A stretch of DNA of 64,000 bases, from contig JAQTPC010000002.1 in the NCBI GenBank assembly GCA_028713005.1, forward strand, positions 36,643 to 100,642. Reading direction: 5' to 3'. Below the pieces are notes generated by a model that ran no database searches, was not told the DNA's origin, and worked only from the letters and a program-made list of their open reading frames with translations. The position numbers and the translations under genes are program-made. Source of the DNA: Minisyncoccota bacterium (GTDB lineage: Bacteria > Patescibacteriota > Minisyncoccia > Phycocordibacterales > PALSA-1337). This document shows positions 7,555 through 34,075 of the stretch, in pieces (position 1 is the stretch's first letter; each line of letters begins with the position of its first letter).

Positions 7555-8760
7555 GTGTGGGAGCATGAATATATGAAACCACGACGCATACTTATTTTTT
7601 CTTTTGCGTACTATCCTCGCTTTGTTGGCGGGGCTGAGGTTGCTATAAAGGAAATTACTGACCGCATATCATCTGAGACTATCGAGTTTGATCTCATTTG
7701 CCTTCGTCTTGATTCGCGCTTGCCGGCATTTGAGCGTATAGGAAATGTGAATATATATCGCGTTGGCTTTTCACAGCATAAAGAATTTTCAACAGATTCA
7801 TTGCCGTGGTATTTGCATATAAATAAATACTTGTATCTTTTTACTGGTGTACGAAAAGCTCTCTCGCTCAATCGTAAAAGACATTATGACGCTATCTGGT
7901 CGCTCATGGCTACCTATAGTTCATTTGCTGCAGTTATATTCAAGATACTCAAACCAAAAATTCCATTTATCTTCACATTGCAGGATGGTGACCCTATTCC
8001 ATATATAAAGCGAAAAGCATTACCGTTGTACCCATTATTTAAAATGATGTTCACGAGAGCTGATCACATACAGACTATCTCTACTTATCTCGCTGATTGG
8101 GCAAAAGATATGGGTGCGAAGTGCCCGATAACCGTCGTGCCAAATGCGGTTGATTTCAAGCTATTCTCGACAAAAGAATCTGTTGAAGAGCAGAATGTTT
8201 TGAAAGAAAAGCTCGGCAAAAAAGAAGGGGATATTTTTGTAATCACTACTTCTCGACTTGTAGTAAAAAATGCAGTAAATGATGTTATCGATGCACTTCA
8301 GTATTTACCAGCGAACGTAAGATTTATTGTGTTGGGTCAGGGGTATCAGGAAAAAATGCTCAAGGATCAATGTTCAATGCTCGAACTGAATGATCGTGTG
8401 AAATTCCTGGGCTATGTACCACACAAAGAAATGCCCAAATATCTCCACGTTTCAGATGTTTTCATTCGTCCTTCATTATCTGAGGGTTTCGGTAATTCAT
8501 TTATAGAAGCAATGGCTGCAGAAATACCAGTTATAGCTACGCCAGTTGGTGGTATCACAGACTTTCTCGTCGAAGGAGAAACAGGACTTTTTTGCGATGT
8601 GCACAGTCCGCGCAGTATTACCCAGAAGATAGAAAAATTGATCAGAGACAGAGAGTCGCGTGACTATATTGTCGCTCGCGCAAAAAAGATGGTTCAAGAA
8701 AAATATGAATGGAATGCTATTGTTGAACGTATGCAGGATATATTTCTCAGTATTGTATAG
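7555..8760 (+). CDS. glycosyltransferase family 4
   Basis: C-terminal 'EGFGNSFIEAMAAEIPVIATPVGGITDFLVEGETG' is the GT4 (EX7E) signature. Confidence 0.8.
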   Translation: MWEHEYMKPRRILIFSFAYYPRFVGGAEVAIKEITDRISSETIEFDLICLRLDSRLPAFERIGNVNIYRVGFSQHKEFSTDSLPWYLHINKYLYLFTGVRKALSLNRKRHYDAIWSLMATYSSFAAVIFKILKPKIPFIFTLQDGDPIPYIKRKALPLYPLFKMMFTRADHIQTISTYLADWAKDMGAKCPITVVPNAVDFKLFSTKESVEEQNVLKEKLGKKEGDIFVITTSRLVVKNAVNDVIDALQYLPANVRFIVLGQGYQEKMLKDQCSMLELNDRVKFLGYVPHKEMPKYLHVSDVFIRPSLSEGFGNSFIEAMAAEIPVIATPVGGITDFLVEGETGLFCDVHSPRSITQKIEKLIRDRESRDYIVARAKKMVQEKYEWNAIVERMQDIFLSIV

Positions 8761-8799
8761 CAAAGTACATAAGTCGAATTCGTAGTATAATTAGAAGAT

Positions 8800-9840
8800 A
8801 TGAAAATACTTATTGCATCTGGTATATACCCACCTGATATCGGCGGTCCTGCACAATACGCCCGTAATCTCTATGAAACATGGAAGGGCCGCGATCATGA
8901 TGTGAAGGTAGCTGCATATCGCTGGGAGCGAGCATTTCCTCCGCTCGTCAGGCATTTTTTGTATTTTCTCAAGATCATTCGCAAAGGTTGGAAGGCAGAC
9001 CTTATCCTTGTGCTCGACACATGGTCAGCTGCAGTGCCGACAATGCTCGCATGCTCACTTATGAGAAAAAAATACATTCTGCGTACTGGGGGTGATTTTT
9101 TATGGGAAACATACGCAGAGAGAACAGGTGACATGGTTTTATTCAATAACTTTTATGGAAAGGACAACGCAGCTGGTCCAGAGTTTATGGCAAAGTTGTC
9201 ATTTAAAGAGAGACTCGTATTCAAGCTCGGTGGAGCTGCACTTCGTCGTGCACAAGTAGTTATCTTCAGTACCCAGTGGCAAAAAAATATATTCGAACGG
9301 GCGTACAAAATCAACACAAAAAAAAGTGTCATCGTAGAAAATTATTGTGGTGCACGTATGGATATCATGGAGCCAGAAAATCGAACATTTTTGGCCAGTA
9401 CTCGCATCTTGAAATGGAAAAATATCGACCTCCTCAAAGAGGCCTTCGCTGAGGCTCAGGTTGAGGTCAAACGTCGCGGTTTGCCTGATATTGATATGGA
9501 TACGAGCAAAGCGATGTATTCGAACTTCGTTGAGCGTATGCACCGTTCATATGCAGTTATCCTCGCGTCACTTGGTGATATCAGCCCAAACATGATCTTT
9601 GATGCAGTCATGACGCGTACACCTTTTATTGTTACAAAAGAGATCGGTATCACTGACAGGATACAAGACGCAGCTATTTTTATTGATCCAAAAAACAAAC
9701 AGGATATTGTTGATAAGATTGTGTGGATGGCTGATCCTGCGAACCGTGCAGTGCAAGCAAAAAAAGTTCAGGCACTACCATTTATGCATTCATGGGAGGA
9801 CATTGCTCGTGAGATCTTGGAGATCGGTAAGAAAAAATAG
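8800..9840 (+). CDS. glycosyltransferase (GT4-like, GT-B fold)
   Basis: N-terminus 'MKILIASGIYPPDIGGPAQYARNL' is typical of GT4 enzymes. Confidence 0.6.
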   Translation: MKILIASGIYPPDIGGPAQYARNLYETWKGRDHDVKVAAYRWERAFPPLVRHFLYFLKIIRKGWKADLILVLDTWSAAVPTMLACSLMRKKYILRTGGDFLWETYAERTGDMVLFNNFYGKDNAAGPEFMAKLSFKERLVFKLGGAALRRAQVVIFSTQWQKNIFERAYKINTKKSVIVENYCGARMDIMEPENRTFLASTRILKWKNIDLLKEAFAEAQVEVKRRGLPDIDMDTSKAMYSNFVERMHRSYAVILASLGDISPNMIFDAVMTRTPFIVTKEIGITDRIQDAAIFIDPKNKQDIVDKIVWMADPANRAVQAKKVQALPFMHSWEDIAREILEIGKKK

Positions 9841-9890
9841 CGATGCAAATTGCTAATGCATGCGAATGACGCGAATATAAACACTGAATT

Positions 9891-10925
9891 ATGGATAATA
9901 AAATGACAACAGGTAAACGGCTGCTAATGATATCGACTGATCGAAAGATGTTTGAGGAGAACAGCACGGTGCGTGCCCGTCAGGCAATTTATGCAAAAGA
10001 TTTTGAAGAAGTGCACATCATTATCTTTGCCAAAGGGAAGCATGAGACGCAAAAGGAAATTGTAGTCGCCCCAAATTGCTGGGCATATTCAACACAGTCT
10101 TTTTCAGCCCTGATGTATTCGATGGACGCCATTCGCTTTGCCAAATTTATTGTTTCAAAAAGAGGCATAACAGATATTACGTGCCAAGATCCTTTTCAGA
10201 CAGCTTCGGTAGGAGCTGCTCTTAAGCGACAATTTCCTCACGTTCACCTTGAATTACAAGTGCACACTGATATTGGCTCACCACACTTTACTTATACATT
10301 GGGGAATAAAATCAGAAAGACTCTGGCACTCTCATATCTCCCAAAGGCGGATCATGTGCGTGTCGTTTCAAATAAAATAAAGTCATACCTTATTGATGTG
10401 CTCAAAATTGCTGATGCAAAGATAGAGGTCAGACCTATAGTAGTTGATATTGGTACAATTAAAAATGCACCAATCATTCCTGGTGCAGATCTGCATAAAA
10501 AGTATTCTCAGTTTGAAAAGATTATTTTGATGGCATCGCGAATTGAGCCAGAAAAGAATACCAAGCTCGCTATTGATGCATTCAAAAAAGTCGTAGAAAA
10601 AATGCCAAAAGCAGGTTTGGTTATTGTTGGAGAGGGTTCTGAGGGTTCAAAATTAAAAGTGCAAAGTGAAAATTTGTCTCTAAAAAACTCTGTTATCTTT
10701 GAGTCATGGGCAGATCAGTCAACACTGTATTCGTACTATAAAACTGCTAATGTCTTCCTTGTCACTTCACTCTTTGAAGGGTATGGCATGACACTTGTGG
10801 AAGCGCATGCTGCTGGATGTAAGATCGTTTCAACTGATGTCGGTGTGGCCAGAGAAATTGGCGCAACTATTGTTCTCGATACTCCTCAAAGCGTTTCAGA
10901 GGGAATCATTGGAATTATCGGTTAA
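9891..10925 (+). CDS. glycosyltransferase family 4
   Basis: 'LFEGYGMTLVEAHAAGCKIVSTDVG' is the GT4 motif. Confidence 0.7.
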   Translation: MDNKMTTGKRLLMISTDRKMFEENSTVRARQAIYAKDFEEVHIIIFAKGKHETQKEIVVAPNCWAYSTQSFSALMYSMDAIRFAKFIVSKRGITDITCQDPFQTASVGAALKRQFPHVHLELQVHTDIGSPHFTYTLGNKIRKTLALSYLPKADHVRVVSNKIKSYLIDVLKIADAKIEVRPIVVDIGTIKNAPIIPGADLHKKYSQFEKIILMASRIEPEKNTKLAIDAFKKVVEKMPKAGLVIVGEGSEGSKLKVQSENLSLKNSVIFESWADQSTLYSYYKTANVFLVTSLFEGYGMTLVEAHAAGCKIVSTDVGVAREIGATIVLDTPQSVSEGIIGIIG

Positions 10926-10948
10926 AAAGCGTTATACTGCCGTTTATT

Positions 10949-11863
10949 ATGGCTGACATGACTAAACCCCTCATTGGATTTATCGGACAAGGCTGGATCG
11001 GTAAGAACTATTCGAACGACCTCGAAGCACGCGGATATACTGTCGTGCGTTATGGTTTGGAAGATGAATATAAAGCCAATAAGATAAAGATCAAGGATTG
11101 CGACATCGTATTTATCGCTGTACCAACGCCAACAACAAAAAAGGGCTTTGATGATAGTTATGTGCGTTCAGTACTGCCACTTATCGGAAAAGGGAAGATT
11201 GCAGTTATAAAATCAACCCTAATTGTTGGTTGCACAGAGCGTCTACAGAAGTCATTTAAAAATATTATTGTTACACACTCGCCAGAATTCTTGAGCGAAA
11301 AGACTGCTGCATATGACGCTGCTCATCCTGATAGAAATATCATTGGTATTCCAGTGAATAATAAAAAATACGTCGATGGGGCAAATCTCGTGTTGTCAGT
11401 CCTGCCATCAGCGCCATTTTCTCTTGTCTGTGATGCGTCTGAAGCTGAGCTCATCAAATATAGCCACAATGTGCATGGATACATTCAGGTTATATTCGCC
11501 AACATTCTCTATGATCTTGCACAGGAATTCTCGATGGACTGGGAAGTTCTTTTCAAAGCATTTTCTGCCAATCCGCTTATGGTTCCACGATATCTCCGTC
11601 CTGTGCATCAGAGCGGTCGCGGGGCAGGAGGCAATTGTTTTGTGAAAGATTTTGAGGCCTTCATCCGTCTCTTTGAGAGCAAGGTAAATGATAAGACGGG
11701 GATCGCAGCACTCAAAGCTATACGCAACAAAAATATCCAGCTTCTTGTCTCATCAGGAAAAGATCTAGAAAAAATCAAAGAGATGTACGGACTTAGTGCT
11801 ATTAGACGCCATCAGAAGAAATCATCGAAGCGCACGCCAGCAAAAAAGTCCGTTAAAAAATAA
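10949..11863 (+). CDS. nucleotide-sugar dehydrogenase family protein (UDP-glucose/GDP-mannose dehydrogenase-like). It is short, with a Lys-rich C-terminal tail.
   Basis: Rossmann 'GFIGQGWIGK' and catalytic-Cys motif 'GGNCFVKDF' (compare GGSCFPKD of UGDH). At 304 aa it lacks the usual C-terminal UDP-binding domain. Confidence 0.5.
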   Translation: MADMTKPLIGFIGQGWIGKNYSNDLEARGYTVVRYGLEDEYKANKIKIKDCDIVFIAVPTPTTKKGFDDSYVRSVLPLIGKGKIAVIKSTLIVGCTERLQKSFKNIIVTHSPEFLSEKTAAYDAAHPDRNIIGIPVNNKKYVDGANLVLSVLPSAPFSLVCDASEAELIKYSHNVHGYIQVIFANILYDLAQEFSMDWEVLFKAFSANPLMVPRYLRPVHQSGRGAGGNCFVKDFEAFIRLFESKVNDKTGIAALKAIRNKNIQLLVSSGKDLEKIKEMYGLSAIRRHQKKSSKRTPAKKSVKK

Positions 11864-12945
11864 TGAAACTCCTCATCCTCACGCAAAAGGTAGATAAGCT
11901 TGATCCGATCCTCGGTTTCTTTCATCGTTGGATAGAGGAGTTTGCGAAGCATGCAGAAAAGGTAACGGTTATAACTCTCAATGAAGGTATTCATCAATTA
12001 CCAGAGAATGTGATGGTTTTTTCACTGGGCAAATCAAAAGATCAGTATGTTGGATTCAAAGATAGAATAAAATTTGTCTTTAATTTTTATGGCTATATCT
12101 GGAGTGAGAGGAAAAATTACGATACTGTTTTCGTGCATATGAACCCAATATATGTTGTTTTTGGTGGTTTGTTTTGGAAGATAATGGGCAAGAAAATATC
12201 TATGTGGTATACGCACCGTGAAGTTGATCTGAAATTGCGTGTAGCTGAAGTATTCGCTGATGTTATTTTCACTGCTGCAAAAGAAAGCTTCAAATTACCA
12301 AGTAAAAAAGTAGTTGTTACTGGGCACGGTATCGATGTTGCTCAGTTTCTCAACATGCAGCGTTCAAAAGTGATCGGCACTGATCCTATCCGTTTATTGC
12401 ATGTCGGCCGCGTCACACAAATCAAAAATTGCGATACCCTCATCGAGGCCGCGAAGATTCTCGGAGAGTGCTGGAATAAGAAGTTTGAAATAGTTTTTGC
12501 GGGTAGTCCTGTCACTGATGCGGACCGGTCATATATGACTTCGCTTTCGTCGCTCATCTCTACCTATAAGCTCGATAATCAGATTAAGTTTATCGGTCAT
12601 GTAGCACCTTCAGATATCAATAAACAATATGCGGCGTGTGATGCGACGGTCAATCTCACGCCAACTGGCGGTATCGATAAAGCCGTGCTCGAATCGATGG
12701 CCTCAGGTGTGCCGGTGTTTTCTTCAAACCAAGCTTTTGTAAATTACTTTGATAGGTATGCTGAAAAGCTTATCTTCAACGAGCGTGATGCAGACGATCT
12801 GGCTCAAAAAATAATGGCATTGTTTGCAGGGGATTTGCAGACTGTGGGCGCTAATCTGCAAAAGATAGCCGAAGAGAAGGCGGATATCGGTGTGCTTATA
12901 CATACTATCTCTGATAAACTGACTTTGTTATGGAAAAACAAGTAA
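11863..12945 (+). CDS. glycosyltransferase family 4
   Basis: GT-B architecture. The C-terminal half has 'ESMASGVPVF' (the EX7E-like region). Confidence 0.65.
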   Translation: MKLLILTQKVDKLDPILGFFHRWIEEFAKHAEKVTVITLNEGIHQLPENVMVFSLGKSKDQYVGFKDRIKFVFNFYGYIWSERKNYDTVFVHMNPIYVVFGGLFWKIMGKKISMWYTHREVDLKLRVAEVFADVIFTAAKESFKLPSKKVVVTGHGIDVAQFLNMQRSKVIGTDPIRLLHVGRVTQIKNCDTLIEAAKILGECWNKKFEIVFAGSPVTDADRSYMTSLSSLISTYKLDNQIKFIGHVAPSDINKQYAACDATVNLTPTGGIDKAVLESMASGVPVFSSNQAFVNYFDRYAEKLIFNERDADDLAQKIMALFAGDLQTVGANLQKIAEEKADIGVLIHTISDKLTLLWKNK

Positions 12946-13550
12946 ATAAAGATCATTATAATTTTAAGGCATATTCTCATCTCGGCCGATGGGCGAGCTA
13001 TTTCTTTCAGCTCGAGCAAGTCTTTTCTTTTAATCCCGCATCTATCCTCGAAATCGGTGTCGGTGACCGCGTTTTTGGAGATTATATAAAAAATAATACT
13101 GATATCAAATATATCTCAGCTGATGTGGCCGAGGATCTCAAGCCTGATGTCGTTGCAAGTGTTACTGCGCTACCTTTCACAGATGGTGAGTTTGATGTTT
13201 CATGCGCCTTTGAAGTGCTTGAGCATATACCATTTGATTCATTTGAAGATGCATTGCGAGAGATGGCACGTGTATCAAAAAAAGCGGTGATCATCAGCCT
13301 TCCTCACTTTGGGCCATCATGTGAACTTTCATTTAAGATTCCTTTTATCAAGAGAGTAAAGCTTGCCTTTAAACTCCCGTTTCATCCAATCCATGCGTGG
13401 AACGGCGAGCACTATTTTGAGATTGGCAAAAAGGGTTATGAAGTCGGCGAGATACGCAACGTTTTGCGTAAGGATTTTGTCATCCAAAAAGATTTTGTGC
13501 CGTTTGAAAATCAGTACCATCATTTCTTCGTTCTCGTTCCTAAAAAGTAA
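12930..13550 (+). CDS. class I SAM-dependent methyltransferase
   Basis: Motif I 'ILEIGVGDRVFG' and 'LPFTDGEFDVSCAFEVLEHI'. Confidence 0.7.
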   Translation: MEKQVNKDHYNFKAYSHLGRWASYFFQLEQVFSFNPASILEIGVGDRVFGDYIKNNTDIKYISADVAEDLKPDVVASVTALPFTDGEFDVSCAFEVLEHIPFDSFEDALREMARVSKKAVIISLPHFGPSCELSFKIPFIKRVKLAFKLPFHPIHAWNGEHYFEIGKKGYEVGEIRNVLRKDFVIQKDFVPFENQYHHFFVLVPKK

Positions 13551-13561
13551 TCGTTACGCGT

Positions 13562-14593
13562 ATGAAAATAGCTTTCATTCCACCAAAGAAGAGAAGCGAG
13601 TATCTGACCAATACCGTGTTGGATGGTCTTTTGTGGCTGAAGCGTGATGGGGACGGCCCTGCATCTGGCATAGAGCTTGCTTTGCCGCCCGAGGAATATC
13701 TCTGCCCGTATGACCTCTCGCCGTATATATTGAACGAGGCTGAGTTTGATGCATTCGCGCGATCAGCCCACTTGATCATCCTGCCTTTTGGAAAAAATAC
13801 GACTAACTATGAACTCGCAGAAAAAATAGGGCGTTGGGATAAAACCGTCTTTGTTGATGGTGGTGAGTTGGGCAAGGATAGGCGTTACGACACTACCATC
13901 CGCGCTCAAGTCGAAGAGATGACCTATGATGGCTTCGGAAAAATATATGCTGACATGCTCTCAAAATGTGCATTGTATTTTAGACGTGAAAAGCCTTATA
14001 TTAAAGGCATTATTCCTTTACCTTTCGGTATTGAGTCGCGTTACTTGGTGCAATTTGATCCAACTAAAAAGAGGAATATCGATTTTTGTTGTATCTTTGG
14101 TCAGGATGAATATCCGATACTGAGACGCCATGCGACAAAAGTGCTTGAGAAATTTTGCAAGAAAAATGGCTTTATCTGTCAAACAAAAAAGACCAAGGGA
14201 TTTACTTTTGAAGATGATCAAAAAGTTGCAGGTAGAGATCCATTTTATGAGATCCTCTCACGTTCGAAAGTTGGTATATCGATCGGTGGTGGTGGCTTCG
14301 ACACGGCGCGCTTTTGGGAAATACTTGGCAATGATTGTATGCTTCTCACTGAGACTATCGACATATATGAAAAAGATAGCACTGCTCTCAACTATAAGGG
14401 AATCATTCAGTTTAAGGACCTAGTTGATTTTGAGGAGAAGCTTGTACAGGTCGCTGGTTTTCTCAAAAATGGCTATAATCAAACCGATAGATCAGGTGAG
14501 TATGCAGAGATCATCAAGATGCATTCAAGTAAGGCGCGTGCGATGACGGTATTAACTGAGGCAGAAAAAAAGGGTATTATTTCGCTTAATTAA
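13562..14593 (+). CDS. hypothetical protein, possibly an unclassified GT-B-like glycosyltransferase
   Basis: The call rests on glycan-cluster context, a size of 343 aa and a 'GISIGGGGFDT' glycine-rich segment. There is no firm motif. Confidence 0.3.
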   Translation: MKIAFIPPKKRSEYLTNTVLDGLLWLKRDGDGPASGIELALPPEEYLCPYDLSPYILNEAEFDAFARSAHLIILPFGKNTTNYELAEKIGRWDKTVFVDGGELGKDRRYDTTIRAQVEEMTYDGFGKIYADMLSKCALYFRREKPYIKGIIPLPFGIESRYLVQFDPTKKRNIDFCCIFGQDEYPILRRHATKVLEKFCKKNGFICQTKKTKGFTFEDDQKVAGRDPFYEILSRSKVGISIGGGGFDTARFWEILGNDCMLLTETIDIYEKDSTALNYKGIIQFKDLVDFEEKLVQVAGFLKNGYNQTDRSGEYAEIIKMHSSKARAMTVLTEAEKKGIISLN

Positions 14594-14598
14594 CATAC

Positions 14599-15384
14599 AT
14601 GACAACATCACCATACGATTGTGCAATAGTTATTCCTTCATGTGATTCGTATGAAGAAGCGTGGGGTCCTTTTTTTGGTTTCTTTTTCAAATATTGGCCT
14701 GATTGTCCATTTCCTATATATCTCATCACTGAAACAAAAAAGTTCGATGATGCTCGTGTACAGACCATAAATCTCGGCAAAGACTTTGGTTGGGCGAACA
14801 ACATGATCAAATCTCTTGCTATCATTCCAGAAAATAATTTTATTTATTTCTTGGAAGACGTCTTTATCATGAAAAAGGTAGATACAGCGCGTGTGATCTC
14901 ACTCCTCGATCTGCTCAAAAAAGACAATGTTTCATGTCTCCGCTTATTCCCGCTTCCAGGTCCGAGTACTGCATATGGAGACAGGAATGATCTTGGTATC
15001 ATTGCGGAAGATGCAGAGTATCGCGTCTCGACGATGCCAGCGATCTGGAATAAATCCGCTTTCAGTAGATTGCTCGTTGCAGGGGAGAATGCATGGCAGA
15101 TGGAGCTCGATGGTACAAAGCGTGCACACGTGATGAACGAACTTTTCCTGAGTGTTTGGCCTGGCGATGCCGTCATAGATATATTTGCCACTGCTATCAA
15201 ACGTGGACGTTGGCTCTATGATGCGGTTCAGTTGTGCCATAAAGAAGGTATCAGCGTCAGTCCAAAGAGACCAGTAGAGAGCTTCAATGAATACATCATC
15301 CGTAAGGCCTGCTATCTTCCTCTTATTGGTGGATTCTTCAGAGTAGGGCATCGTTGGTACCATTCTCGAGACAAAAAGAAATAG
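14599..15384 (+). CDS. hypothetical protein, possible GT-A-like nucleotide-sugar transferase
   Basis: 261 aa. The 'YFLEDVF' segment is DXD-like. Cluster context supports the guess. Confidence 0.3.
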   Translation: MTTSPYDCAIVIPSCDSYEEAWGPFFGFFFKYWPDCPFPIYLITETKKFDDARVQTINLGKDFGWANNMIKSLAIIPENNFIYFLEDVFIMKKVDTARVISLLDLLKKDNVSCLRLFPLPGPSTAYGDRNDLGIIAEDAEYRVSTMPAIWNKSAFSRLLVAGENAWQMELDGTKRAHVMNELFLSVWPGDAVIDIFATAIKRGRWLYDAVQLCHKEGISVSPKRPVESFNEYIIRKACYLPLIGGFFRVGHRWYHSRDKKK

Positions 15385-15413
15385 TTTTAAATAAACTTAA
15401 TTTGAAAAATAGA

Positions 15414-15454
15414 TAATAAAAAAGCATTCCTTGGAAGGAATGCTTCGTGTTTTG
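15414..15454. terminator. bidirectional Rho-independent terminator between convergent genes
   Basis: AAAAAAGCATTCC-TTGGAA-GGAATGCTTCGTGTTTTG. The A-run before and the T-run after mean it works in both orientations. Confidence 0.55.
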
Positions 15455-15470
15455 TGAATCAATACCGTGT

Positions 15471-16229: not shown

Positions 16230-16389
16230 GGCATACCTTTCTGTTGTGTTTTTGCTGTGTCAGTTCGATGTCGTATCGAACTAAATTCAAATTACATTAT
16301 AGCATTTTATACATGCTATGTCAATAAATATGGCTAGATTTAAGGCTTTATTTCTGATATAGTACGAATCTAAACGCTTATATTTCCAC

Positions 16390-17451: not shown

Positions 17452-17477
17452 TTTAATAGCTTAACTTTGAAATACTC

Positions 17478-18638: not shown

Positions 18639-18639
18639 T

Positions 18640-23013: not shown

Positions 23014-23014
23014 A

Positions 23015-24670: not shown

Positions 24671-24674
24671 ATGA

Positions 24675-25703: not shown

Positions 25704-25707
25704 AGTA

Positions 25708-27183
25708 TTACTTAATTTTTCGGAGTATCACGCATTCATCACGGAGTTCTTGCTTGAAATGGTATTTTTCTATTGCACTATAAAATGCGGCGCTCGAGCC
25801 GGGTTTCATCCGGTCATGAAGTTCGATAATGAGTATGTTGACCTTGCTCAACCATGAGTCACAATTTCCCGAAAAGAGTTCTTTTTCAGCACCTTCTATA
25901 TCTAGTTTTAAAATATCGATCTCAGCATATCCTGACATCTTGAGCACATCATCAATAGTGATTGCTTCAACGACATTGTCACCACCAGATTGTGCTTCTG
26001 TAGTAGTGAATGCCCATTCGCCTAGACCACTATCATTAACGGCTAACTTAGTTGTTTTATTCCATAAACCTTTTTTAAGAGGATGAATGAGAGGATATCG
26101 AGATACATTTTTCTGTAATGTACGGAAGTTTGTATTTTCTGGTTCAATGGCAAATATTTTTGCGGTAGGAAACTGCTTTGCAAAAAAGACAGATGTGTAG
26201 CCAACATTAGCGCCACCATCGATGATGAACTTTGGTTGTATAGTGCCATAATCTATGCCGTATTGTTTTTCGATGAAAACCTGCCTGATAACCGCTGCGT
26301 CAGAAGTATTGAAACGTACGATAAGTGGGAAGAAAGTAATACGATACTTAATCGTTGTTAAGATGTGCAGAGTAGTCTTTTTTGTCGCTAGATACCATGA
26401 GCGCATGCCTGAATTTGTGTTTCGTTTGATGAATTCTTTTATTTGTCTCTTGTACCTTTTAAGCTTGTAAGTAATGAGTTTCTGCCAAAAACCAGATATA
26501 TTGTATTTCTTAAGTATATAGCGGTATTCATTCTCTCGTATTTTCTCTTTGCTTGAATTGCCCATCTGGTTTCCATGGACACGGATGACGACGTTTACAT
26601 CATTTAATATCTTGGGTGCACCATAGCGTTCGTAGTATCTCTTATAAAAATCGAGATCCTGCCACCATATGAGATTAGTATCAAATAAAACAGGGTTATC
26701 ATTTCGTAGTGTCGCTACCGAAGGTGCACTGATAGTGTTTTTGAAGAGTATTTTCTCATCATTATATGTAGGAAAGAAAGGACGATAAAATGTCTCTCCA
26801 TCCTTAGATGAAATACTTGCAGTAAGGAGCCAACGGTCTTTTTCAAGATCAAAGTTCTGTGCGATTTCTTCAAGTGCTTTTGGATGATAGAGAAAATCAT
26901 CGAGGAAAAGTATCTTAATCAATTTTCCTGTAGCGTGCTTGATGGCATTATTATTGTTATCGGACGGCGTTGCCTCTGGCTTTTCTCTGAAATAATGGAT
27001 ATCGAGACTGTTACTGTATTCTTTGCATACTTTGTCTATCTCATCGTTTTTTGATTGGTCAGATATGACTACGTCAAAATCAGTGAATGTTTGCAATATA
27101 AGCTTGTCAAAACTGAATCGCAAAAAATCTGCACCTTTACCACCCATTTCATATGTAGATATACAGATGCTGATTAGTTTCAT
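25708..27183 (-). CDS. bifunctional GT2 glycosyltransferase / FkbM-family methyltransferase
   Basis: N-terminal 'ISICISTYEMG...DFDVVISDQS' is GT2-like. C-terminal 'IDGGANVGYTSVFFAKQFPTAKIFAIEPENTNF' is the FkbM methyltransferase signature. Confidence 0.6.
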   Translation of the reverse strand: MKLISICISTYEMGGKGADFLRFSFDKLILQTFTDFDVVISDQSKNDEIDKVCKEYSNSLDIHYFREKPEATPSDNNNNAIKHATGKLIKILFLDDFLYHPKALEEIAQNFDLEKDRWLLTASISSKDGETFYRPFFPTYNDEKILFKNTISAPSVATLRNDNPVLFDTNLIWWQDLDFYKRYYERYGAPKILNDVNVVIRVHGNQMGNSSKEKIRENEYRYILKKYNISGFWQKLITYKLKRYKRQIKEFIKRNTNSGMRSWYLATKKTTLHILTTIKYRITFFPLIVRFNTSDAAVIRQVFIEKQYGIDYGTIQPKFIIDGGANVGYTSVFFAKQFPTAKIFAIEPENTNFRTLQKNVSRYPLIHPLKKGLWNKTTKLAVNDSGLGEWAFTTTEAQSGGDNVVEAITIDDVLKMSGYAEIDILKLDIEGAEKELFSGNCDSWLSKVNILIIELHDRMKPGSSAAFYSAIEKYHFKQELRDECVILRKIK

Positions 27184-27189
27184 GATGTT

Positions 27190-27975
27190 CTATTTTGCCT
27201 TGGAACCACCAGTCTTTTGCTTTGCCCACGTAAGTTCAGAAACACGCTTCCACATAAATCGAACCTTGCGGCGTGTTCTGTCGAGGAGACGTGGCATATC
27301 AACTACATATGTAGAACCTTCGATTTTTGCAGGGTATTTTTTTATAAATACAATGCTGCGGTATAGGTGCATAAATTGGATAGCATCTTCCCACCATGAA
27401 AGCACGGTTTTATTGTTGAGGTGATAAGCGTCAGTTGCATCGAGCGCATGATTTCCGGTGCCCGATTTGCCAGATGAATTAACATAATCAACCAACTCCT
27501 TGATCTTATCGATGAATACAGGTTCGCCCGCGCCATGTGTCTTTCCCCAGTAACACATATGGAGATCTTCGACGACATAGATGCCATCGGGTTTCAGGAG
27601 AGGAAAGAGGCAATCAAAACTTGCTTTCATATCAGGATTTCGGTGACTACCGTCGTCGATGATGATATCGAATGGGCCATGCTTTTTGTTGATCATGGCG
27701 AGAAATGCAGGATCGCTTTGGTCACCTTTTTCAGTATATATCCTCTCTTGTTCAAGCTCTTTGCAATCTTCTATATCTGCACCAACTAGTTTTGCTTTAA
27801 TGAAGTATTCTTTCCAGGTGAGGAGTGAGTGTCCATTGGCGATGCCTATCTCAAGAATTGTTATAGGCTTATCGCGAAGTGCTTCAAAATAGGCAGCATA
27901 CAGCTTTGTATAGTTGTGTTTTCTGCTTGATTTGTCTGTACCGTATTTCAGTGCGATCTCATCGAGTGTCTTCAT
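27190..27975 (-). CDS. SAM-dependent methyltransferase (TylF/MycF-like sugar O-methyltransferase family, putative)
   Basis: 'KYGTDKSSRKHNYTKLYAAYF...ILEIGIANGHSL' is the Methyltransf_24-like pattern. Confidence 0.5.
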   Translation of the reverse strand: MKTLDEIALKYGTDKSSRKHNYTKLYAAYFEALRDKPITILEIGIANGHSLLTWKEYFIKAKLVGADIEDCKELEQERIYTEKGDQSDPAFLAMINKKHGPFDIIIDDGSHRNPDMKASFDCLFPLLKPDGIYVVEDLHMCYWGKTHGAGEPVFIDKIKELVDYVNSSGKSGTGNHALDATDAYHLNNKTVLSWWEDAIQFMHLYRSIVFIKKYPAKIEGSTYVVDMPRLLDRTRRKVRFMWKRVSELTWAKQKTGGSKAK

Positions 27976-29588
27976 AGAAGTGAATTGATTAGTGTTTGTA
28001 TTTTCGCATTGCGCTCTTCACGATTGCGGAGCGTTTTCCAGCCTGAGGAGCCAAATAAATGCATCCAATCACCGAGGTATTCTATCATATCTACTGAAGG
28101 ATCCATGACCTTGGTTTTCGGGGTACCCGCGTCAGTAATTGCTACATATGATGAGACAGGAAATTCGATTTTTGTCTTATCGAGCTTTGAATACAAATGC
28201 TTCCAGTTCATGCCTCCTGTATCCACACCGACCCCACCAATTTTTCCGTTCATAAAGTTTGGCTGTACTACGGCGTTACTTTTAAAGAAACAAAATCCAG
28301 CCCACAAGTACCATAGATTATTTTTTCTGATCTGTAGATGCCCAAATATTGATTGTGCATCAAGTATAGATATGACACCTGTTTTTTTGATAGGGAAGAT
28401 ATCGTGATCAAGAAAGCCAAAATAGTGAGCGTTTCTCTTATTAAAATAATTTTTATATATCCAGTTGAGCGACGAGCCGTGCGATGCTGATCGAGTGAGA
28501 TAGTTTTTTGGAAGTTTTACATAGGCTATTTTTTCTGCCGCGCATAGTCTTTTTATCTCCTCAGCTTTGTCTGTATCAGTTGAATTGTCGAATACGGTAT
28601 AAAAATAGGGATCAGTGATATTTTTTCGTATGAGCTTTATTTGCCAAGCGATTACTTCAGGTTTATTGAAGGCGACTGTAGCAAGATCGAGAATATTTTT
28701 ATCCTTTAACTGACTATTGGTACAGTTGATATGTTCACAGACGTCAAAGCTAACTTTATAAAATTCATACTCTTTCTTTCTTAAATATATTTTTTTGTAT
28801 AAGTAGGAAACGGTGTTAGTGATTCTTTTTACTACATATGTGCATAGTGGCAATACATAGAGTGGATGCAAAAATGCAAGTTTCTTGATAAGAAAATGAA
28901 AGTACATTTTCTGTATTTGCGCGAGTTCTATGGCATGCACTCTACCTTCATAATAGGTACTTAGTTGGTTGGCATGAATTCTTTTTTGGGTAAGCACCTG
29001 TGGAATGTTAGCGATGTGTAGTCCACTCATGATTGCTCGTACGTAAAAATCATATTCATTTTCATAGCGATATGTATCTGCATACGTCACATTCTTTTCT
29101 TTAATATCCTGTGCACGGATGATTGCAGTTGTAGATTCAATCTGGTTACCCAAAAGCATGGCAGCCATCGTAGTATCAGATACAGGATCACATACGTCTT
29201 TATTTTTTGATCCAAATAACGAGACCAATGTTCCTGAAATGGAAACCTTTGGATTGGTATCCATAAACGCTACTTGGGTTTTGATTCGCTCCGACAGACT
29301 GATATCATCAGCATCCATCCTGGCAATATATTTTCCTTTAGACACATTCAGCCCTTTATTTAATGAAGTGACAATGCCGCGATTCACCTCGTTTTCAAGG
29401 TAGTGAATACGGTAGTCTGTGTAGGACTTTATGATTTCTTTTGTTCGATCAGTTGAACCGTCATTTATAATGATAAGTTCAAAATTTGAAAAAGTTTGAG
29501 AGAGAATACTATCGACCGCCTCTTTTATGTATGTTTCGCCGTTGTAAACGGGGAGAATGATCGATACGGCTGGTTGTATGTGTGCCAT
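27972..29588 (-). CDS. glycosyltransferase family 2 with an extra C-terminal domain
   Basis: 'VSIILPVYNGETYIKEAVDSILSQTFSNFELIIINDGSTD' is the canonical GT2 N-terminus. 538 aa. Confidence 0.75.
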   Translation of the reverse strand: MAHIQPAVSIILPVYNGETYIKEAVDSILSQTFSNFELIIINDGSTDRTKEIIKSYTDYRIHYLENEVNRGIVTSLNKGLNVSKGKYIARMDADDISLSERIKTQVAFMDTNPKVSISGTLVSLFGSKNKDVCDPVSDTTMAAMLLGNQIESTTAIIRAQDIKEKNVTYADTYRYENEYDFYVRAIMSGLHIANIPQVLTQKRIHANQLSTYYEGRVHAIELAQIQKMYFHFLIKKLAFLHPLYVLPLCTYVVKRITNTVSYLYKKIYLRKKEYEFYKVSFDVCEHINCTNSQLKDKNILDLATVAFNKPEVIAWQIKLIRKNITDPYFYTVFDNSTDTDKAEEIKRLCAAEKIAYVKLPKNYLTRSASHGSSLNWIYKNYFNKRNAHYFGFLDHDIFPIKKTGVISILDAQSIFGHLQIRKNNLWYLWAGFCFFKSNAVVQPNFMNGKIGGVGVDTGGMNWKHLYSKLDKTKIEFPVSSYVAITDAGTPKTKVMDPSVDMIEYLGDWMHLFGSSGWKTLRNREERNAKIQTLINSLL

Positions 29589-29609
29589 ATATGTATAGGG
29601 TAACTAAGT

Positions 29610-30884
29610 CTACTTATTTTTGAATGTGTAGGAGATGATGTTGCTTGGAAAATCTTTGCCCGGTTGAAGGCGGAAGTTGAACTTCTCAATATCAGTTGTA
29701 GTAACTTCGAACTGTACGATATTTTCGAGCACGTCGCGGTTTGATCCTGCGGCAATGAGCCATACCGTGATCGAGTATCTGCCTGCCTTGAGATTGATGG
29801 GCGCTGTCTCGCAGATGATAGTTCCATGAGAGGGGATATGCTCACCGAGTGTTTCGGCTGAGATGGCACTGTCTATAAAGAGTACTCTTTTTTGAGTCAA
29901 TTCATCGGTCACGATGATGTTGATCTGAGGATCGATGATGTCACCTTTGGTATCATTTGCATACTCAAGTTTGAAATGGAGACGGCTGTCACTTTTGACT
30001 GGACCACCACCAATAGCGGAAACATCGATACCTTTGAAATGAGGGCCTTTTTTATCTGCACGGTTAGCGAGTTTTTCTGTTGCCTCCTTGCCACCAATGA
30101 TCGGTTGTCCGTTGAGATATGCATCGATGATCTCCTTTGTCTCGCCGATCTGCTTGATTGTGCCACCTTCAAGCCAAATAGTTTTTTTACAGAGTCGTTC
30201 AACTGCTGCCATATTATGACTGACGAAGAGGATGGTACGTCCTTCTTTTTGTGTCACTTCCTGCATCTTACCAAGACATTTTTTCTGGAATTCTGCATCG
30301 CCGACAGCGAGTACTTCATCGACGATGAGGATATCTGGTTCCATATGTGCAGCAACAGAGAAGGCGAGACGGACATACATGCCACTCGAATAGCGCTTTA
30401 CCGGTGTATCGAGGAATCTGTCGACGCCGGCGAACTCAACTATCCGATCGAACTTTTTTGCAATTTCTGTGCGTTTCATGCCGAGGATAGCGCCATTCAA
30501 AAATATATTTTCACGACCAGTGAGCTCAGGGTGGAAGCCAGTACCAACTTCAAGGAGGGAGCCAACACGTCCGCGGAGGATGATCTCGCCCTCGGTTGGA
30601 GGAGTGATCTGGGAGAGTATCTTGAGGAGAGTTGATTTTCCTGCACCATTGCGTCCGATGATGCCGATGACTTCACCTTTTTGTACGTCAAAACTGACAT
30701 TGCGTAATGCCCAGAAATCTTCACGACTCTCCATGCCAGTAACTTGGCGAGCTTTTTTTGCAAGAAATGCAAATGGCTTTTTTATGATGCCTGCAAGTAC
30801 ATCACGGAGTGCTACGTAGCGGCCACGCTCATGGTTGATGAGATATTTTTTGCCGACGCCTTTGACTTCGATGATAGGATTCAT
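29610..30884 (-). CDS. wzt: polysaccharide ABC exporter ATP-binding protein Wzt/TagH-type with a C-terminal carbohydrate-binding domain
   Basis: Walker A 'GIIGRNGAGKSTLLKIL', signature 'YSSGMYVRLAFS' and a roughly 170-aa C-terminal extension. Confidence 0.85.
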   Translation of the reverse strand: MNPIIEVKGVGKKYLINHERGRYVALRDVLAGIIKKPFAFLAKKARQVTGMESREDFWALRNVSFDVQKGEVIGIIGRNGAGKSTLLKILSQITPPTEGEIILRGRVGSLLEVGTGFHPELTGRENIFLNGAILGMKRTEIAKKFDRIVEFAGVDRFLDTPVKRYSSGMYVRLAFSVAAHMEPDILIVDEVLAVGDAEFQKKCLGKMQEVTQKEGRTILFVSHNMAAVERLCKKTIWLEGGTIKQIGETKEIIDAYLNGQPIIGGKEATEKLANRADKKGPHFKGIDVSAIGGGPVKSDSRLHFKLEYANDTKGDIIDPQINIIVTDELTQKRVLFIDSAISAETLGEHIPSHGTIICETAPINLKAGRYSITVWLIAAGSNRDVLENIVQFEVTTTDIEKFNFRLQPGKDFPSNIISYTFKNK

Positions 30885-30901
30885 ATAGGTGATTGGAAAT
30901 G

Positions 30902-31789
30902 TTATACGACGTCAGCAAAGTAGCGTTCGACTTTCTTGAACATATAAACTCCAATGAAGAGTAACACTGCACAACCGACGACAGAAATGCCGATCTGAAG
31001 CCAGTTGACTTGAGCGGTGCCCAAGAGGACGGCACGAGCATTGTTGACGACGCCGGTCATCGGGTTGAGAGCGAGGAATTTTGAGTAGTGGCCAGCGATA
31101 GAACCAGGATAAATAACAGGGGTGATGAATATAAGGAGCTGGATGAAGTATGGCAGAATATAGCGAACATCACGATACTTTACGTTGATTGCTGCAAGAA
31201 ATAGTCCAAGGCCTTCAGCGCACATAGCGGTGATAATGAGGAGAATAGGAATCACTATGATAGCTTGCCAGCTTGGGGTGATGTGGTAATAAAACATCAT
31301 GCCTGCGAGGATAATAGAGGCAATAGAAAAATCGACAAATTTGGTGATGACAGTTGTGATTGGGATGATAAGGCGAGGGAAGTAGACTTTGGTGATGATG
31401 GCTTGATTGGCTATGAGGGCACCACTGACTTCGCTCAAAGAATCAGAGAAAAGTTGCCAGAAAAGAAGTCCGGTGTAAACAAAGATCGGATACGGAACAT
31501 TGTCAGAAGGGATCTTTGCGAGGCCGCCAAAGAAAACTGAAAAGATGACCATAGCTACAAATGGTTGGATGATAGCCCAGAGAGCGCCGATCATCGTCTG
31601 TTTGTAGCGCACTTTAAGATCGCGCCAGCTAAAGAAGTAGAGAAGCTCGCGATATACCCATATTTCTTTGAGATCTTTGAGGTGGAATAGCTTCTTTGGG
31701 CGTATGACCGTAATAGCAGTTGGTTGGGGGCTAGACATGAAGTCCATACTAGCATAAAGAAATATTCTTGTTGAGTATTTACCTGACAT
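30902..31789 (-). CDS. wzm: ABC-2 type polysaccharide exporter permease Wzm
   Basis: Six predicted TM helices. 'WRDLKVRYKQTMIGALWAIIQP' is the typical ABC-2 permease start. It lies immediately upstream of wzt. Confidence 0.8.
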   Translation of the reverse strand: MSGKYSTRIFLYASMDFMSSPQPTAITVIRPKKLFHLKDLKEIWVYRELLYFFSWRDLKVRYKQTMIGALWAIIQPFVAMVIFSVFFGGLAKIPSDNVPYPIFVYTGLLFWQLFSDSLSEVSGALIANQAIITKVYFPRLIIPITTVITKFVDFSIASIILAGMMFYYHITPSWQAIIVIPILLIITAMCAEGLGLFLAAINVKYRDVRYILPYFIQLLIFITPVIYPGSIAGHYSKFLALNPMTGVVNNARAVLLGTAQVNWLQIGISVVGCAVLLFIGVYMFKKVERYFADVV

Positions 31790-31801
31790 TAAGTATGATG
31801 T

Positions 31802-34075
31802 ATGGATTATAGATATATTAATCAGTTTTTAATTCAGCACTTACCTATGTCTCTCAAATCCATTACACGGTTTTTCATGCTTGCGCCAGTCTTCCTGATT
31901 CCTCTGTTTGTTCTTTTTCCAACACCACATACACCGTTTGAGATATCAAATTTCTTTTTCTTTCCTTTTATCACGGGCAAAGCGTTCTATTTCCGCATTC
32001 TCGTCGAGATAGCATTTGCAGGTTGGGTCATCCTTGCATGTCTTGATGCAAAGTATCGTCCAAAGATAAATGCGCTCACGCTCGGTGTCACTGCATTTGC
32101 CCTCATCACCCTCGTAGCCGATCTCCTTGGCGTGAATCCACTCCGTAGTCTCTGGTCAAACTTTGAGCGTATGGAAGGTTGGATAGTCATCGCTCATCTC
32201 TGGATGTTCTTTATTGTCATGGCACATGCATTTGGATTGCCGGAAACCGGCAAGAAGCTCTGGCGCAACTGGATGAATGTTTCTCTTGTGACTGCGCTTA
32301 TCGTGGCATGTTATGGTTTTGCTCAGCTATTCGGCTGGACAGATATCCACCAAGGATCAGTTCGTATAGATGCTTCGCTCGGTAATGCAGCGTATATGGC
32401 TATCTATATGTTGATCAGTACTGGTTTTGCTGTGTATCTTTTCTTGGAATCAAAAGTTCGCCGTGCTACCACAAATATCTTTGATCTCACTGTTCTCGAA
32501 TGGCTCTATGCGATAGCGGCAATCGTTTTCTCTTTCCTCCTCTTTGAAACAGCTACTCGTGGTACTGCATTTGGTTTGATTGGAGGCGTAATGCTTGCCC
32601 TCTTTTTGTATGCGATCTTCGCTGGATCAGCAAAGAAAACATCACGCATTGTCGCTGGCAGTATTATCGTTGGTATCATCATTCTTGGTGGTATCATCTG
32701 GCTCGCACGTGATTCTCATTTTGTTCAAAATAACGCAGCTCTCAACCGTCTAACCTCTATCACACTCACTGAGATACAGACGCAAGGTCGTGCCTACATC
32801 TGGCCAATGGCAGTGAAGGGTTCTCTTGAACGTCCAGTCCTCGGTTGGGGTCAAGAAAATTTCAACTATATCTTTAACGCCAACTATAACCCTGCCATGT
32901 ACAACCAAGAGCAGTGGTTCGATCGTGCTCACAGCGTGTATCTCGATTGGCTTGTTGCTTCAGGATTTGTTGGTTTGTTAGCGTATCTCGCTCTCTATGT
33001 ATTTTTCTTGATGGCAGTGTGGAAGTCTACGCTTACAGTCGCAGAAAAAAGTGCACTCACTGGTCTCCTTGTCGGTTACGCTATTCACAATATCTTTGTA
33101 TTCGATAACCTTGCGAGCTATGTCTCATTCTTTGCTCTTCTCGGTCTTGGCGCTTCGCTTACTCCTGCAAAAGTTGAAGGTGTACCAAAGCCACCAAAAG
33201 AGATCGGTCCGGATATGATCGAATACGTTATAGCGCCAGTCGTTATCATCATTTTGCTCGGTGGACTCTATATGTTCAATATACGTCCAATCCAAGAGAA
33301 CACCCGTCTCATTACTGCGCTTCGGGCATGTGGTGGTGCTTCACTTCCTGATGTGACGTTATTCCAGCGTGCACTTGATAGTGGTTCATATGTTGGAAAA
33401 CAAGAGATCCGTGAACAGATATTCTCATGCGCAGCAAATGTTATCAGTGCACAGCAACTCCCAAATACAACGAAGCAAGCATTCTTTGACCTCGCAACTA
33501 CTGCTATCACTGATCAAATCGCCACTAGTCCGCTCGACGCACGTGTTTACACGCTCGGCGGATCATTCCTTGAACAGGTTGGTGCATATAGTCAGGCAGT
33601 TCCATTCTTGGAAAAGGCTCATGATCTGTCACCAGCAAAACAAACTATCGCATTTGCTCTTGCAACCGCATATATCAATATCAATCAATATGATAAGGCA
33701 CTTGCTCTACTCAAACAGGCGTATGAATCAGCAACTGAAAATGCTGATGCACAGTCAGGTTATCTCACTGCTCTCATCATCGCCGGCAAAGAAACTGATG
33801 CAAAGAAAATTTTTGCTGATCAGCCGGGATTATTCAACACTGAACGTGTTGCCCAGGCGTACGCTCTTGCAAAGCAGTATGACAAGTCTATTGCCGCGTA
33901 TAAGTCACTCATTGGAACAAGTACTGATCAAGTAAATATGCAGTTTAGAATGGCTCAAGTTCAGTACAGTGCCGGTAGAATATATGATGCAGTAGCTACG
34001 CTTCAAGCTATCGAAAAGGCTCATCCTGAATACAAGACTCAGATTGACCAGGCAATCAAGCAGGTTCAAAAATAG
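31802..34075 (+). CDS. Wzy_C (O-antigen ligase/polymerase-like) polytopic membrane protein with a C-terminal TPR-repeat domain
   Basis: About 12 TM helices. 'RAHSVYLDWLVASGFVGLLAYL' is the Wzy_C core. The C-terminal 250 aa are Ala-rich, TPR-like repeats. Confidence 0.7.
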   Translation: MDYRYINQFLIQHLPMSLKSITRFFMLAPVFLIPLFVLFPTPHTPFEISNFFFFPFITGKAFYFRILVEIAFAGWVILACLDAKYRPKINALTLGVTAFALITLVADLLGVNPLRSLWSNFERMEGWIVIAHLWMFFIVMAHAFGLPETGKKLWRNWMNVSLVTALIVACYGFAQLFGWTDIHQGSVRIDASLGNAAYMAIYMLISTGFAVYLFLESKVRRATTNIFDLTVLEWLYAIAAIVFSFLLFETATRGTAFGLIGGVMLALFLYAIFAGSAKKTSRIVAGSIIVGIIILGGIIWLARDSHFVQNNAALNRLTSITLTEIQTQGRAYIWPMAVKGSLERPVLGWGQENFNYIFNANYNPAMYNQEQWFDRAHSVYLDWLVASGFVGLLAYLALYVFFLMAVWKSTLTVAEKSALTGLLVGYAIHNIFVFDNLASYVSFFALLGLGASLTPAKVEGVPKPPKEIGPDMIEYVIAPVVIIILLGGLYMFNIRPIQENTRLITALRACGGASLPDVTLFQRALDSGSYVGKQEIREQIFSCAANVISAQQLPNTTKQAFFDLATTAITDQIATSPLDARVYTLGGSFLEQVGAYSQAVPFLEKAHDLSPAKQTIAFALATAYININQYDKALALLKQAYESATENADAQSGYLTALIIAGKETDAKKIFADQPGLFNTERVAQAYALAKQYDKSIAAYKSLIGTSTDQVNMQFRMAQVQYSAGRIYDAVATLQAIEKAHPEYKTQIDQAIKQVQK

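Follow-up and report, generated by a model that had tools for sequence, protein, structure and literature searches.

What receives a surface glycan in a bacterium in which a lipopolysaccharide (LPS) core is an unlikely acceptor? The question is raised by a locus at positions 7555-34075 of a 64-kb stretch of DNA (the window), taken from a Paceibacteria (Patescibacteria) metagenome-assembled genome. The few described bacteria of the candidate phyla radiation (CPR) are monoderm (PMC8871954), which makes transfer to an LPS core unlikely, as a first-pass annotation of the locus had argued, and no lpx or waa genes were found within the 64-kb window. About 48 open reading frames (ORFs) of the window were scanned with Pfam and NCBIfam. 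The ORF listing and these scans confirmed the gene content of 7555-34075 with small corrections (Table 1). The locus is a genuine cluster for making a methylated sugar chain of the cell surface in an ultra-small bacterium of the Paceibacteria, and it consists of a variable surface-glycan biosynthesis island (7555-31789) beside a conserved gene, which encodes a membrane protein with a Wzy_C domain fused to tetratricopeptide repeats (TPR) and is here called Wzy_C-TPR. By its defining features the locus reads as an ATP-binding cassette (ABC) transporter-dependent glycan cluster with a candidate ligase of the WaaL fold, although the lipid A-core acceptor of a true WaaL is unlikely here. Taken alone, this is an ordinary polysaccharide gene cluster, and the NCBI annotation already names an "O-antigen ligase family protein" and a "polysaccharide ABC transporter ATP-binding protein". 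What is added here is a pattern across genomes, in which a conserved ligase candidate next to murB borders a hypervariable island with interchangeable exporters.

Homologues of Wzy_C-TPR number more than 3100. Over at least 94% of its length the query is covered by each of the best 120, which are 51-100% identical to it, and every one of these 120 that carries a source name comes from the Patescibacteria. When one genome of each species was scanned by motif, relatives were located in at least 579 species genomes. In the 46 loci containing all three genes, Wzy_C-TPR had a median identity to the window protein of 53%, as against 55% in the case of MurB and 70% in that of SecA, and the Wzy_C-TPR identities correlated with those of MurB and SecA (Spearman 0.62 and 0.67, respectively). 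Because its identities resemble those of MurB and track those of both MurB and SecA, Wzy_C-TPR evolves like a vertically inherited housekeeping gene. In 51 of the 64 loci with sufficient flanking sequence murB lies within 5 kb downstream of Wzy_C-TPR, as a rule with secA, a NUDIX gene, DUF1653 and obg beyond it. The other side of the gene was compared in 80 related loci (L004-L083), counting an island gene as recognisable at 40% identity or more over half its length. Apart from Wzm/Wzt, each island gene was recognisable in at most 4 of the 80. Wzy_C-TPR had been proposed as the end gene of the glycan pathway; on these comparisons it is instead a lineage-wide core gene bordering on a hypervariable glycan island, syntenic with murB-secA and paired with four classes of exporter.

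These exporters were surveyed by clustering all ORFs within 6 kb of Wzy_C-TPR in the 80 loci, with no preselection of families, and annotating the cluster representatives. Four exporter classes were found upstream of Wzy_C-TPR, mostly divergently transcribed: a Wzm/Wzt pair in 22 loci (median distance 167 bp for Wzm and 1184 bp for Wzt), a Wzx-type Polysacc_synt protein of ∼423 residues in 16 loci (85 bp), a second MOP-type flippase of ∼510 residues in 10 loci (121 bp; for example, L031 612-2126) and a PglK/MsbA-like fused ABC transporter of ∼594 residues in 10 loci (582 bp; for example, L075 6120-7916). In 60 loci the sequence extended 3 kb or more upstream; exactly one exporter class lay within this distance in 50 of them, and two classes in none. 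Three further loci have Wzm/Wzt farther off or downstream, and in one locus a second class appears when the span is widened to 6 kb. The interchange is seen at close range in the closest relative found (L004, the same locus as L001), whose Wzy_C-TPR and SecA are 79% and 92% identical to those of the window. The DNA of L004 is collinear with the window from ∼19.8 kb (a methyltransferase gene) through ∼44 kb (a two-component system), except for 29100-31767. In place of this interval, which contains Wzt and Wzm, L004 (8111-9941) has just one gene, for a Wzx-type flippase, flanked likewise by the conserved gene for a 538-residue family 2 glycosyltransferase (GT2) and the Wzy_C-TPR gene. L004 keeps the Methyltransf_23, GT4 and Methyltransf_12 genes, both GT11-type genes, the GT17-like gene and both GT2s, with the GT2 unfused there.

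In the window itself Wzm and Wzt are encoded by adjacent genes, the hallmark of an ABC-dependent pathway, and the first-pass annotation was borne out on this point. Wzt matched full-length Aquifex aeolicus Wzt with an E value of 2.2e-66 over residues 54-396, and the A. aeolicus WzmWzt transporter (7K2T, 8DKU) is its best match in both sequence and fold, including the C-terminal β-sandwich. This C-terminal region had been proposed to be a domain of the carbohydrate-binding type. Most Wzt homologues carry PF14524 (Wzt_C); the match of the window protein has an E value of 4.4e-6 and lies below the cut-off of 30.4 bits. The C-terminal 165 residues alone gave no PDB match by phmmer, and a profile of the domain alone was only marginally similar to A. 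aeolicus Wzt (6O14 and 8DKY, E 0.5-0.8). Because the isolated domain gave only marginal matches, the evidence for its fold comes from the model of full-length Wzt. The AlphaFold2 model, built from an alignment of 53 sequences, has seven β-strands in residues 281-394 with pLDDT values of 82-92. In a Foldseek search full-length Wzt entries matched with an E value of 2.5e-38 (423 columns), as against 1e-26 for entries of the nucleotide-binding domain only, a gain of ∼12 orders of magnitude. With the strands modeled and the full-length entries preferred, the proposed domain type stands. The median identity across Wzt homologues is 73% for the ATPase domain and 31% for the C-terminal domain, as would be expected of a module that reads a variable glycan, and the modeled β-sandwich probably recognises some feature of the exported chain.

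The Wzy_C-TPR ORF spans 31802-34075 (757 residues), with the likeliest start at 31847 (742 residues). An exact look-up with the 757-residue ORF returned nothing; the homologue search matched MDD5165099.1, the NCBI "O-antigen ligase family protein", which has its annotated start 15 codons later, is identical to the 742-residue protein and is assigned to a Candidatus Pacebacteria/Paceibacterota MAG. The proposed fusion of a Wzy_C-family protein to TPR is upheld by family matches (Table 1), and the Wzy_C domain lies in a WaaL-type fold of 12 transmembrane helices (TM). Hydropathy analysis predicted 13 membrane segments. Because the N terminus is rich in Lys and Arg and a Lys-rich loop precedes TM13, the TPR domain is predicted to lie outside, on the same side as the catalytic loop. 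The domain is a conserved 240-residue superhelix, and its closest structural matches are protein-binding TPRs, for example that of O-GlcNAc transferase. Cys-495 and Cys-528 are invariant in the family and would fit an extracytoplasmic disulfide. The sequence H362-S-x9-G373-x-x-G376 fits H[NSQ]x9Gxx[GTY], reported as the ligase motif of Vibrio cholerae WaaL. In an hhalign alignment of low significance with WaaL of E. coli K-12, the family-invariant residues R238, R315 and H362 fall on R215, R288 and H338. These three WaaL residues are reported to be important for function and correspond to R224, R298 and H349 of PglL (PMC3643930).

Taken together with the interchange of exporters, these features suggest the following route. 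Gmd, ColD and ColC/Fcl would make GDP-colitose and/or GDP-fucose in the cytoplasm, and about ten glycosyltransferases and five methyltransferases would build a methylated, deoxyhexose-containing glycan. The lipid carrier is presumably undecaprenyl phosphate. An initiating transferase of the WecA/WbaP/WsaP type was not found among the scanned window ORFs; its gene may lie in another part of the genome, like that of WecA in E. coli. Wzm/Wzt would then export the finished chain, with the C-terminal β-sandwich of Wzt probably reading a feature of it, and Wzy_C-TPR would transfer the lipid-linked glycan as one block, on the outer side of the cell membrane, onto a non-LPS acceptor. We consider it moderately probable that the island glycan is exported by Wzm/Wzt and then transferred in this way by the conserved ligase candidate. 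A ligase is preferred to a polymerase because the same orthologue pairs with ABC exporters, which carry finished chains, and with three kinds of flippase, and because it stays conserved while the glycan genes change. WaaL and PglL likewise accept many donors.

Several results weigh against this assignment. The hhalign alignment to WaaL is statistically weak, with a probability of 7.7% and an E value of 0.0045, and a profile of the Wzy_C-TPR membrane domain matched no PDB sequence. The PglL_A motif (PF15864), which was defined as separating PglL from WaaL (PMC3643930), gave no match in Wzy_C-TPR at E ≤ 0.01. Ten of the 60 loci with enough upstream sequence have no exporter within 3 kb upstream of Wzy_C-TPR. 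Finally, neither an S-layer nor a pilin gene was found among the window ORFs scanned, and no acceptor-like family recurs beside Wzy_C-TPR in the 80 related loci.

The first-pass annotation had also proposed that the chain is methyl-capped. A terminal O-methyl group, added by a methyltransferase such as the GT2-FkbM fusion, would stop the chain and be read by the C-terminal domain of Wzt. The Wzt protein does have a C-terminal β-sandwich, which is far more variable than its ATPase domain. The GT2-FkbM fusion and an extra methyltransferase (27190-27975) are encoded beside the transporter; the latter lies outside the alignment with L004, in which the GT2 is not fused. The FkbM-like RfbT/WbeT of V. 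cholerae O1 reportedly adds a methyl group to the last sugar of an O antigen that an ABC transporter exports. A further precedent is WsaE, which works with Wzm/Wzt in Geobacillus (PMC2943079). Against this, L004 retains most of the same glycosyltransferase and methyltransferase genes and yet exports by a Wzx-type flippase, which has no such domain. Nor do methyltransferases track Wzm/Wzt, since FkbM and other methyltransferases occur with all four exporter classes across the loci. Five methyltransferases are more than a cap needs, which suggests internal O-methylation, and no WbdD-like kinase domain was found in the Pfam scans of the window, in which a coiled-coil ruler was not searched for. 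The cap as originally formulated is weakened by the gene content of L004 and by the spread of methyltransferases over all exporter classes, and we regard it as a tentative possibility.

With export assigned in this way to Wzm/Wzt, the remaining question is the acceptor of Wzy_C-TPR. An extracytoplasmic TPR favours a protein acceptor, such as an S-layer protein or a pilin, because the external TPR resembles protein-binding TPRs and because WsfB, PglL and WsaB/WsaA offer precedents; by analogy, a membrane glycolipid may also serve. WsfB and PglL have a C-terminal TPR, and WsaB has an adjacent TPR protein, WsaA (PMC2943079). The glycolipid alternative finds its model in TacL of the monoderm Streptococcus pneumoniae, a Wzy_C-family enzyme whose substrate is a polymer assembled on undecaprenyl diphosphate and whose acceptor is a glycolipid, not LPS (PMC5727136). 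Wzy_C-TPR would, on this model, put the glycan on a membrane glycolipid and give a lipoglycan or a lipoteichoic-acid-like polymer. The WaaL fold and the catalytic residues would suit a lipid acceptor equally well, and the lack of an acceptor protein gene, in the window or as a conserved neighbour in the 80 loci, and of the PglL_A motif is in keeping with it. However, TacL (397 residues; PMC5727136) and WaaL are proteins of ∼400 residues, whereas Wzy_C-TPR carries a conserved 240-residue TPR domain predicted to lie outside. The closest structural matches of that domain, protein-binding TPRs such as O-GlcNAc transferase, likewise argue against a lipid acceptor. Neither TacL nor WaaL is known to have a TPR domain. 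We judge a TacL-like role less likely, though a serious rival, and a protein acceptor is favoured.

The adjacency of Wzy_C-TPR to the island might also be mere conserved synteny, with the protein serving a wall function tied to murB, for example the attachment of a peptidoglycan-linked glycan, or some other role in the envelope, and not acting on the island glycan. This reading was considered and ranked low, as quite improbable. Least probable is that Wzy_C-TPR is a Wzy-type polymerase, which would join flipped repeat units with no ligation: the Wzy_C domain is common to Wzy polymerases, the adjoining gene in many relatives is a Wzx-type flippase, the usual partner of Wzy, and no other polytopic Wzy candidate was found in the 10 kb upstream in L001, but orthologues (79% to 53% identity) lie beside Wzm/Wzt in about one-third of loci, including the window, where chains are finished in the cytoplasm and a polymerase is unneeded, and pairings of the orthologues with ABC exporters are no rarer than those with Wzx. 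Wzy enzymes are glycan-specific and fast-diverging, whereas Wzy_C-TPR keeps pace with MurB even as the island genes are completely replaced, and no Wzx or Wzz was found among the scanned window ORFs; the polymerase was accordingly ranked very low.

Transfer of the island glycan by Wzy_C-TPR thus being the preferred reading for the window, a broader possibility can be put forward tentatively. Paceibacteria, and perhaps many Patescibacteria, may share a lineage-wide system of general surface glycosylation, in which a donor-promiscuous Wzy_C-TPR would attach any glycan produced by the island to surface proteins or to some other non-LPS acceptor, conceivably even peptidoglycan, the exporters being freely swapped. 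If true, this would be the counterpart in monoderm, ultra-small cells of O-antigen diversity, with a bearing on host attachment and phage evasion. The Patescibacteria are abundant, mostly uncultured and host-dependent, and their surface chemistry is almost unknown. Searches of the available literature found no paper on the O-antigen ligase family or O-antigen in Patescibacteria, CPR, Parcubacteria or Saccharibacteria, and nothing relevant on LCP enzymes in Patescibacteria. Wzy_C-TPR, which probably completes the display of glycan at the surface, offers a cloneable experimental handle on the glycobiology of the Patescibacteria, and the gene order Wzy_C-TPR then murB provides a genomic marker for locating glycan islands. 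Should the protein accept many donors, it might be of use in glycoengineering.

The genes of the locus form three transcription blocks: plus strand from 7555 to 22102, minus strand from 22099 to 31789, and plus strand again from the Wzy_C-TPR gene on. The nucleotide-sugar genes form a gmd-colD-colC arrangement that is well supported by sequence comparison. The ColD candidate, a DegT-family protein, retains a His at the position of His188 ("GHH" versus "SHH" in ColD), a column located by alignment with the 3B8X sequence, which has N there. It matched perosamine synthases with E values of only about 1e-27. The third enzyme could be either ColC or GDP-fucose synthase (Fcl), its score lying just under the Fcl cut-off. 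Of the GDP-colitose trio originally proposed, Gmd and a ColD with the diagnostic His are thus secure, and the third gene encodes either ColC or Fcl. The two GT11-type transferases would fit the transfer of colitose or fucose. The pathway is like that of E. coli O55 in its gmd-colD-colC order, its Gmd equivalog and the catalytic His of ColD; it differs in that the third enzyme cannot be separated from Fcl and that neither manB nor manC is present in the locus.

The inventory of sugar transferases and methyltransferases in the first-pass annotation was largely recovered. Both GT2s, one of them fused to FkbM, and the GT17-like gene were found as described. Five or more GT4s had been claimed; four are solid (genes starting at 7555, 9891, 11863 and 20233), and one or two more are weak. 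One of the two GT11-like genes is clear, and the second (24675-25703) falls below threshold. At least five methyltransferases had been counted, of which those at 12930, 19403 and 21329 and the FkbM domain in 25708 hold, but the "TylF-like" gene at 27190 resembles Methyltransf_24 and does so weakly. Its interval (27190-27975) is skipped by the DNA alignment of the window with L004, and no homologue was detected in the 80 related loci. The Methyltransf_23 gene, whose ORF begins at 19403, probably has its real start downstream of 19578. The dehydrogenase proposed to resemble UDP-glucose dehydrogenase (UGDH) has the N-terminal and central domains, but the protein is short and scores below the family cut-off; its C-terminal UGDH domain was not matched by Pfam. 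The gene lies flush against the next one and may have decayed or may encode some other enzyme. Three ORFs (13562-14593, 14599-15384 and 15471-16229 on the minus strand) gave no significant family match even at relaxed Pfam thresholds. The scan of ∼48 window ORFs detected no gene for an initiating phosphoglycosyltransferase, Wzx, Wzz, an LCP enzyme, an S-layer protein or a pilin.

Table 1. Genes of the glycan island, the Wzy_C-TPR gene and its murB flank, in window coordinates. GT, glycosyltransferase; SAM, S-adenosylmethionine.
Feature	Position	Strand	Evidence
GT4 glycosyltransferase	7555-8760	+	Pfam Glycos_transf_1 139 bits, Glyco_transf_4 54 bits
GT4-like, sub-threshold	8800-9840	+	Glyco_transf_4 27.6 bits (cut-off 28.5); no NCBIfam match
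GT4 glycosyltransferase	9891-10925	+	Glycos_transf_1 99.8 bits
Short nucleotide-sugar dehydrogenase-like protein, 304 residues	10949-11863	+	UDPG_MGDP_dh N-terminal 62.8 bits, central 44.1 bits; TIGR03026 114 bits (cut-off 189.8)
GT4-type glycosyltransferase	11863-12945	+	Glycos_transf_1 67.5 bits
SAM methyltransferase (Methyltransf_11)	12930-13550	+	37.2 bits
Unknown protein, faint similarity to GT-B C-terminal domain	13562-14593	+	Glyco_trans_1_2 at E 0.039 only
Unknown protein	14599-15384	+	No Pfam/NCBIfam match
Unknown 252-residue ORF (putative gene), possibly GT-A-like	15471-16229	-	Only NCBIfam dolichyl-phosphate hexose transferase, E 0.0068
Gmd	16390-17451	+	TIGR01472 573.6 bits (cut-off 415, equivalog)
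ColD-type GDP-4-keto-6-deoxymannose 3-dehydratase	17478-18638	+	E 1.4e-64 to E. coli ColD (2GMS)
ColC/Fcl-type GDP-sugar epimerase-reductase	18640-19578	+	NF047922 Fcl 466 bits (cut-off 500)
SAM methyltransferase (Methyltransf_23)	19403-20284	+	51.7 bits; 94% amino acid identity in locus L004
GT4 glycosyltransferase	20233-21405	+	Glycos_transf_1 75.9 bits
SAM methyltransferase (Methyltransf_12)	21329-22102	+	31.1 bits
GT11 (fucosyl/colitosyl-type) transferase	22099-23109	-	PF01531 97.4 bits
DUF5672 + GT17-like protein	23015-24670	-	PF04724 91.8 bits, PF18922 76.5 bits
GT11-like, sub-threshold	24675-25703	-	PF01531 22.2 bits (cut-off 23.9)
GT2-FkbM methyltransferase fusion	25708-27183	-	GT2 residues 5-135, 49.9 bits; FkbM 322-459, 60.6 bits; TIGR01444 86 bits
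Weak class-I methyltransferase (Methyltransf_24-like)	27190-27975	-	25.2 bits (cut-off 26.3)
GT2 glycosyltransferase, 538 residues, adjoins transporter	27972-29588	-	PF00535 125.4 bits; same place beside exporter in L004
Wzt ATPase with C-terminal β-sandwich	29610-30884	-	ABC_tran (PF00005) 85.4 bits; Wzt_C 27.2 bits
Wzm ABC-2 permease	30902-31789	-	PF01061 54.1 bits; galactan Wzm/RfbD model 85.9 bits, below cut-off
Wzy_C-TPR membrane protein, candidate glycan ligase of WaaL fold	31847-34075	+	Wzy_C 68.6 bits (cut-off 31.7); TPR
murB	34312-35418	+	FAD_binding_4 + MurB_C; conserved flank of Wzy_C-TPR gene

In G+C content the minus-strand block of glycosyltransferase genes (22000-30000) ranks lowest in the window, at 0.39 as against about 0.43-0.45 on either side, which is compatible with horizontally exchanged cassettes. 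Directly upstream of the locus a plus-strand gene (3751-4986) encodes a DUF4015 putative glycosyl hydrolase (327.6 bits), for which a surface or host polysaccharide may be the substrate. It is followed on the same strand by a gene (5426-7552) for a 708-residue TrwB/VirD4-like type IV coupling-protein ATPase, ending 3 bp 5' of the first glycosyltransferase gene; in locus L021 a homologue of this ATPase is found 7 kb downstream of the Wzy_C-TPR gene. On the murB side, a 268-residue ORF (35575-36381, plus strand) between murB and secA had no Pfam match even at relaxed thresholds. L001 has a 264-residue ORF at this position, and the DNA alignment of the window with L001 skips the 35575-36381 interval. 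A two-component system is encoded on the minus strand ∼8-11 kb downstream of Wzy_C-TPR (histidine kinase 42679-44190, response regulator 44388-45254), and the segment 41862-45254, which also holds an unannotated ORF (41862-42710), has been conserved in L004 and L005, both of them close relatives. Many of the related loci (L010, L015-L017 and others) belong to MAGs titled "uncultured Candidatus Saccharibacteria bacterium", yet in Wzy_C-TPR, MurB and SecA these loci group with Paceibacteria-labelled genomes, and the labels may be generic submission names.

Among characterised Wzy_C proteins, WaaL (Cupriavidus metallidurans 7TPJ; E. coli K-12) has no sequence-level match to Wzy_C-TPR, which has in addition TM13 and the 240-residue external TPR; a lipid A-core is in any case an unlikely acceptor in a host from a lineage reported to be monoderm. 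PglL and PilO (TfpO) of Gram-negative bacteria are alike in having a Wzy_C domain and a conserved Arg/Arg/His triad, and they act after flippases of various kinds. These enzymes have a relaxed specificity for the glycan donor. In contrast to them, Wzy_C-TPR has no detected PF15864 motif and no adjacent pilin gene, and its host is a monoderm Patescibacterium. The closest known systems are the S-layer glycan (slg) clusters found in Geobacillus stearothermophilus NRS 2004/3a and in Paenibacillus alvei, which share with the window a monoderm host, Wzm/Wzt and a methyltransferase-glycosyltransferase fusion, WsaE (PMC2943079). The slg Wzy_C transferases are O-oligosaccharyltransferases with TPR either as a C-terminal fusion (WsfB) or in the product of a neighbouring gene (WsaA/WsaB), and the window presents the same combination of a Wzy_C protein with TPR in a Wzm/Wzt cluster, a likeness of described architecture (PMC2943079). 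The slg clusters include the initiating enzyme WsaP, whereas the scan of the window found neither an initiator nor an S-layer gene. The Wzy_C-TPR of the window differs from its slg counterparts in being a lineage-wide core gene beside murB that is paired with four exporter classes.

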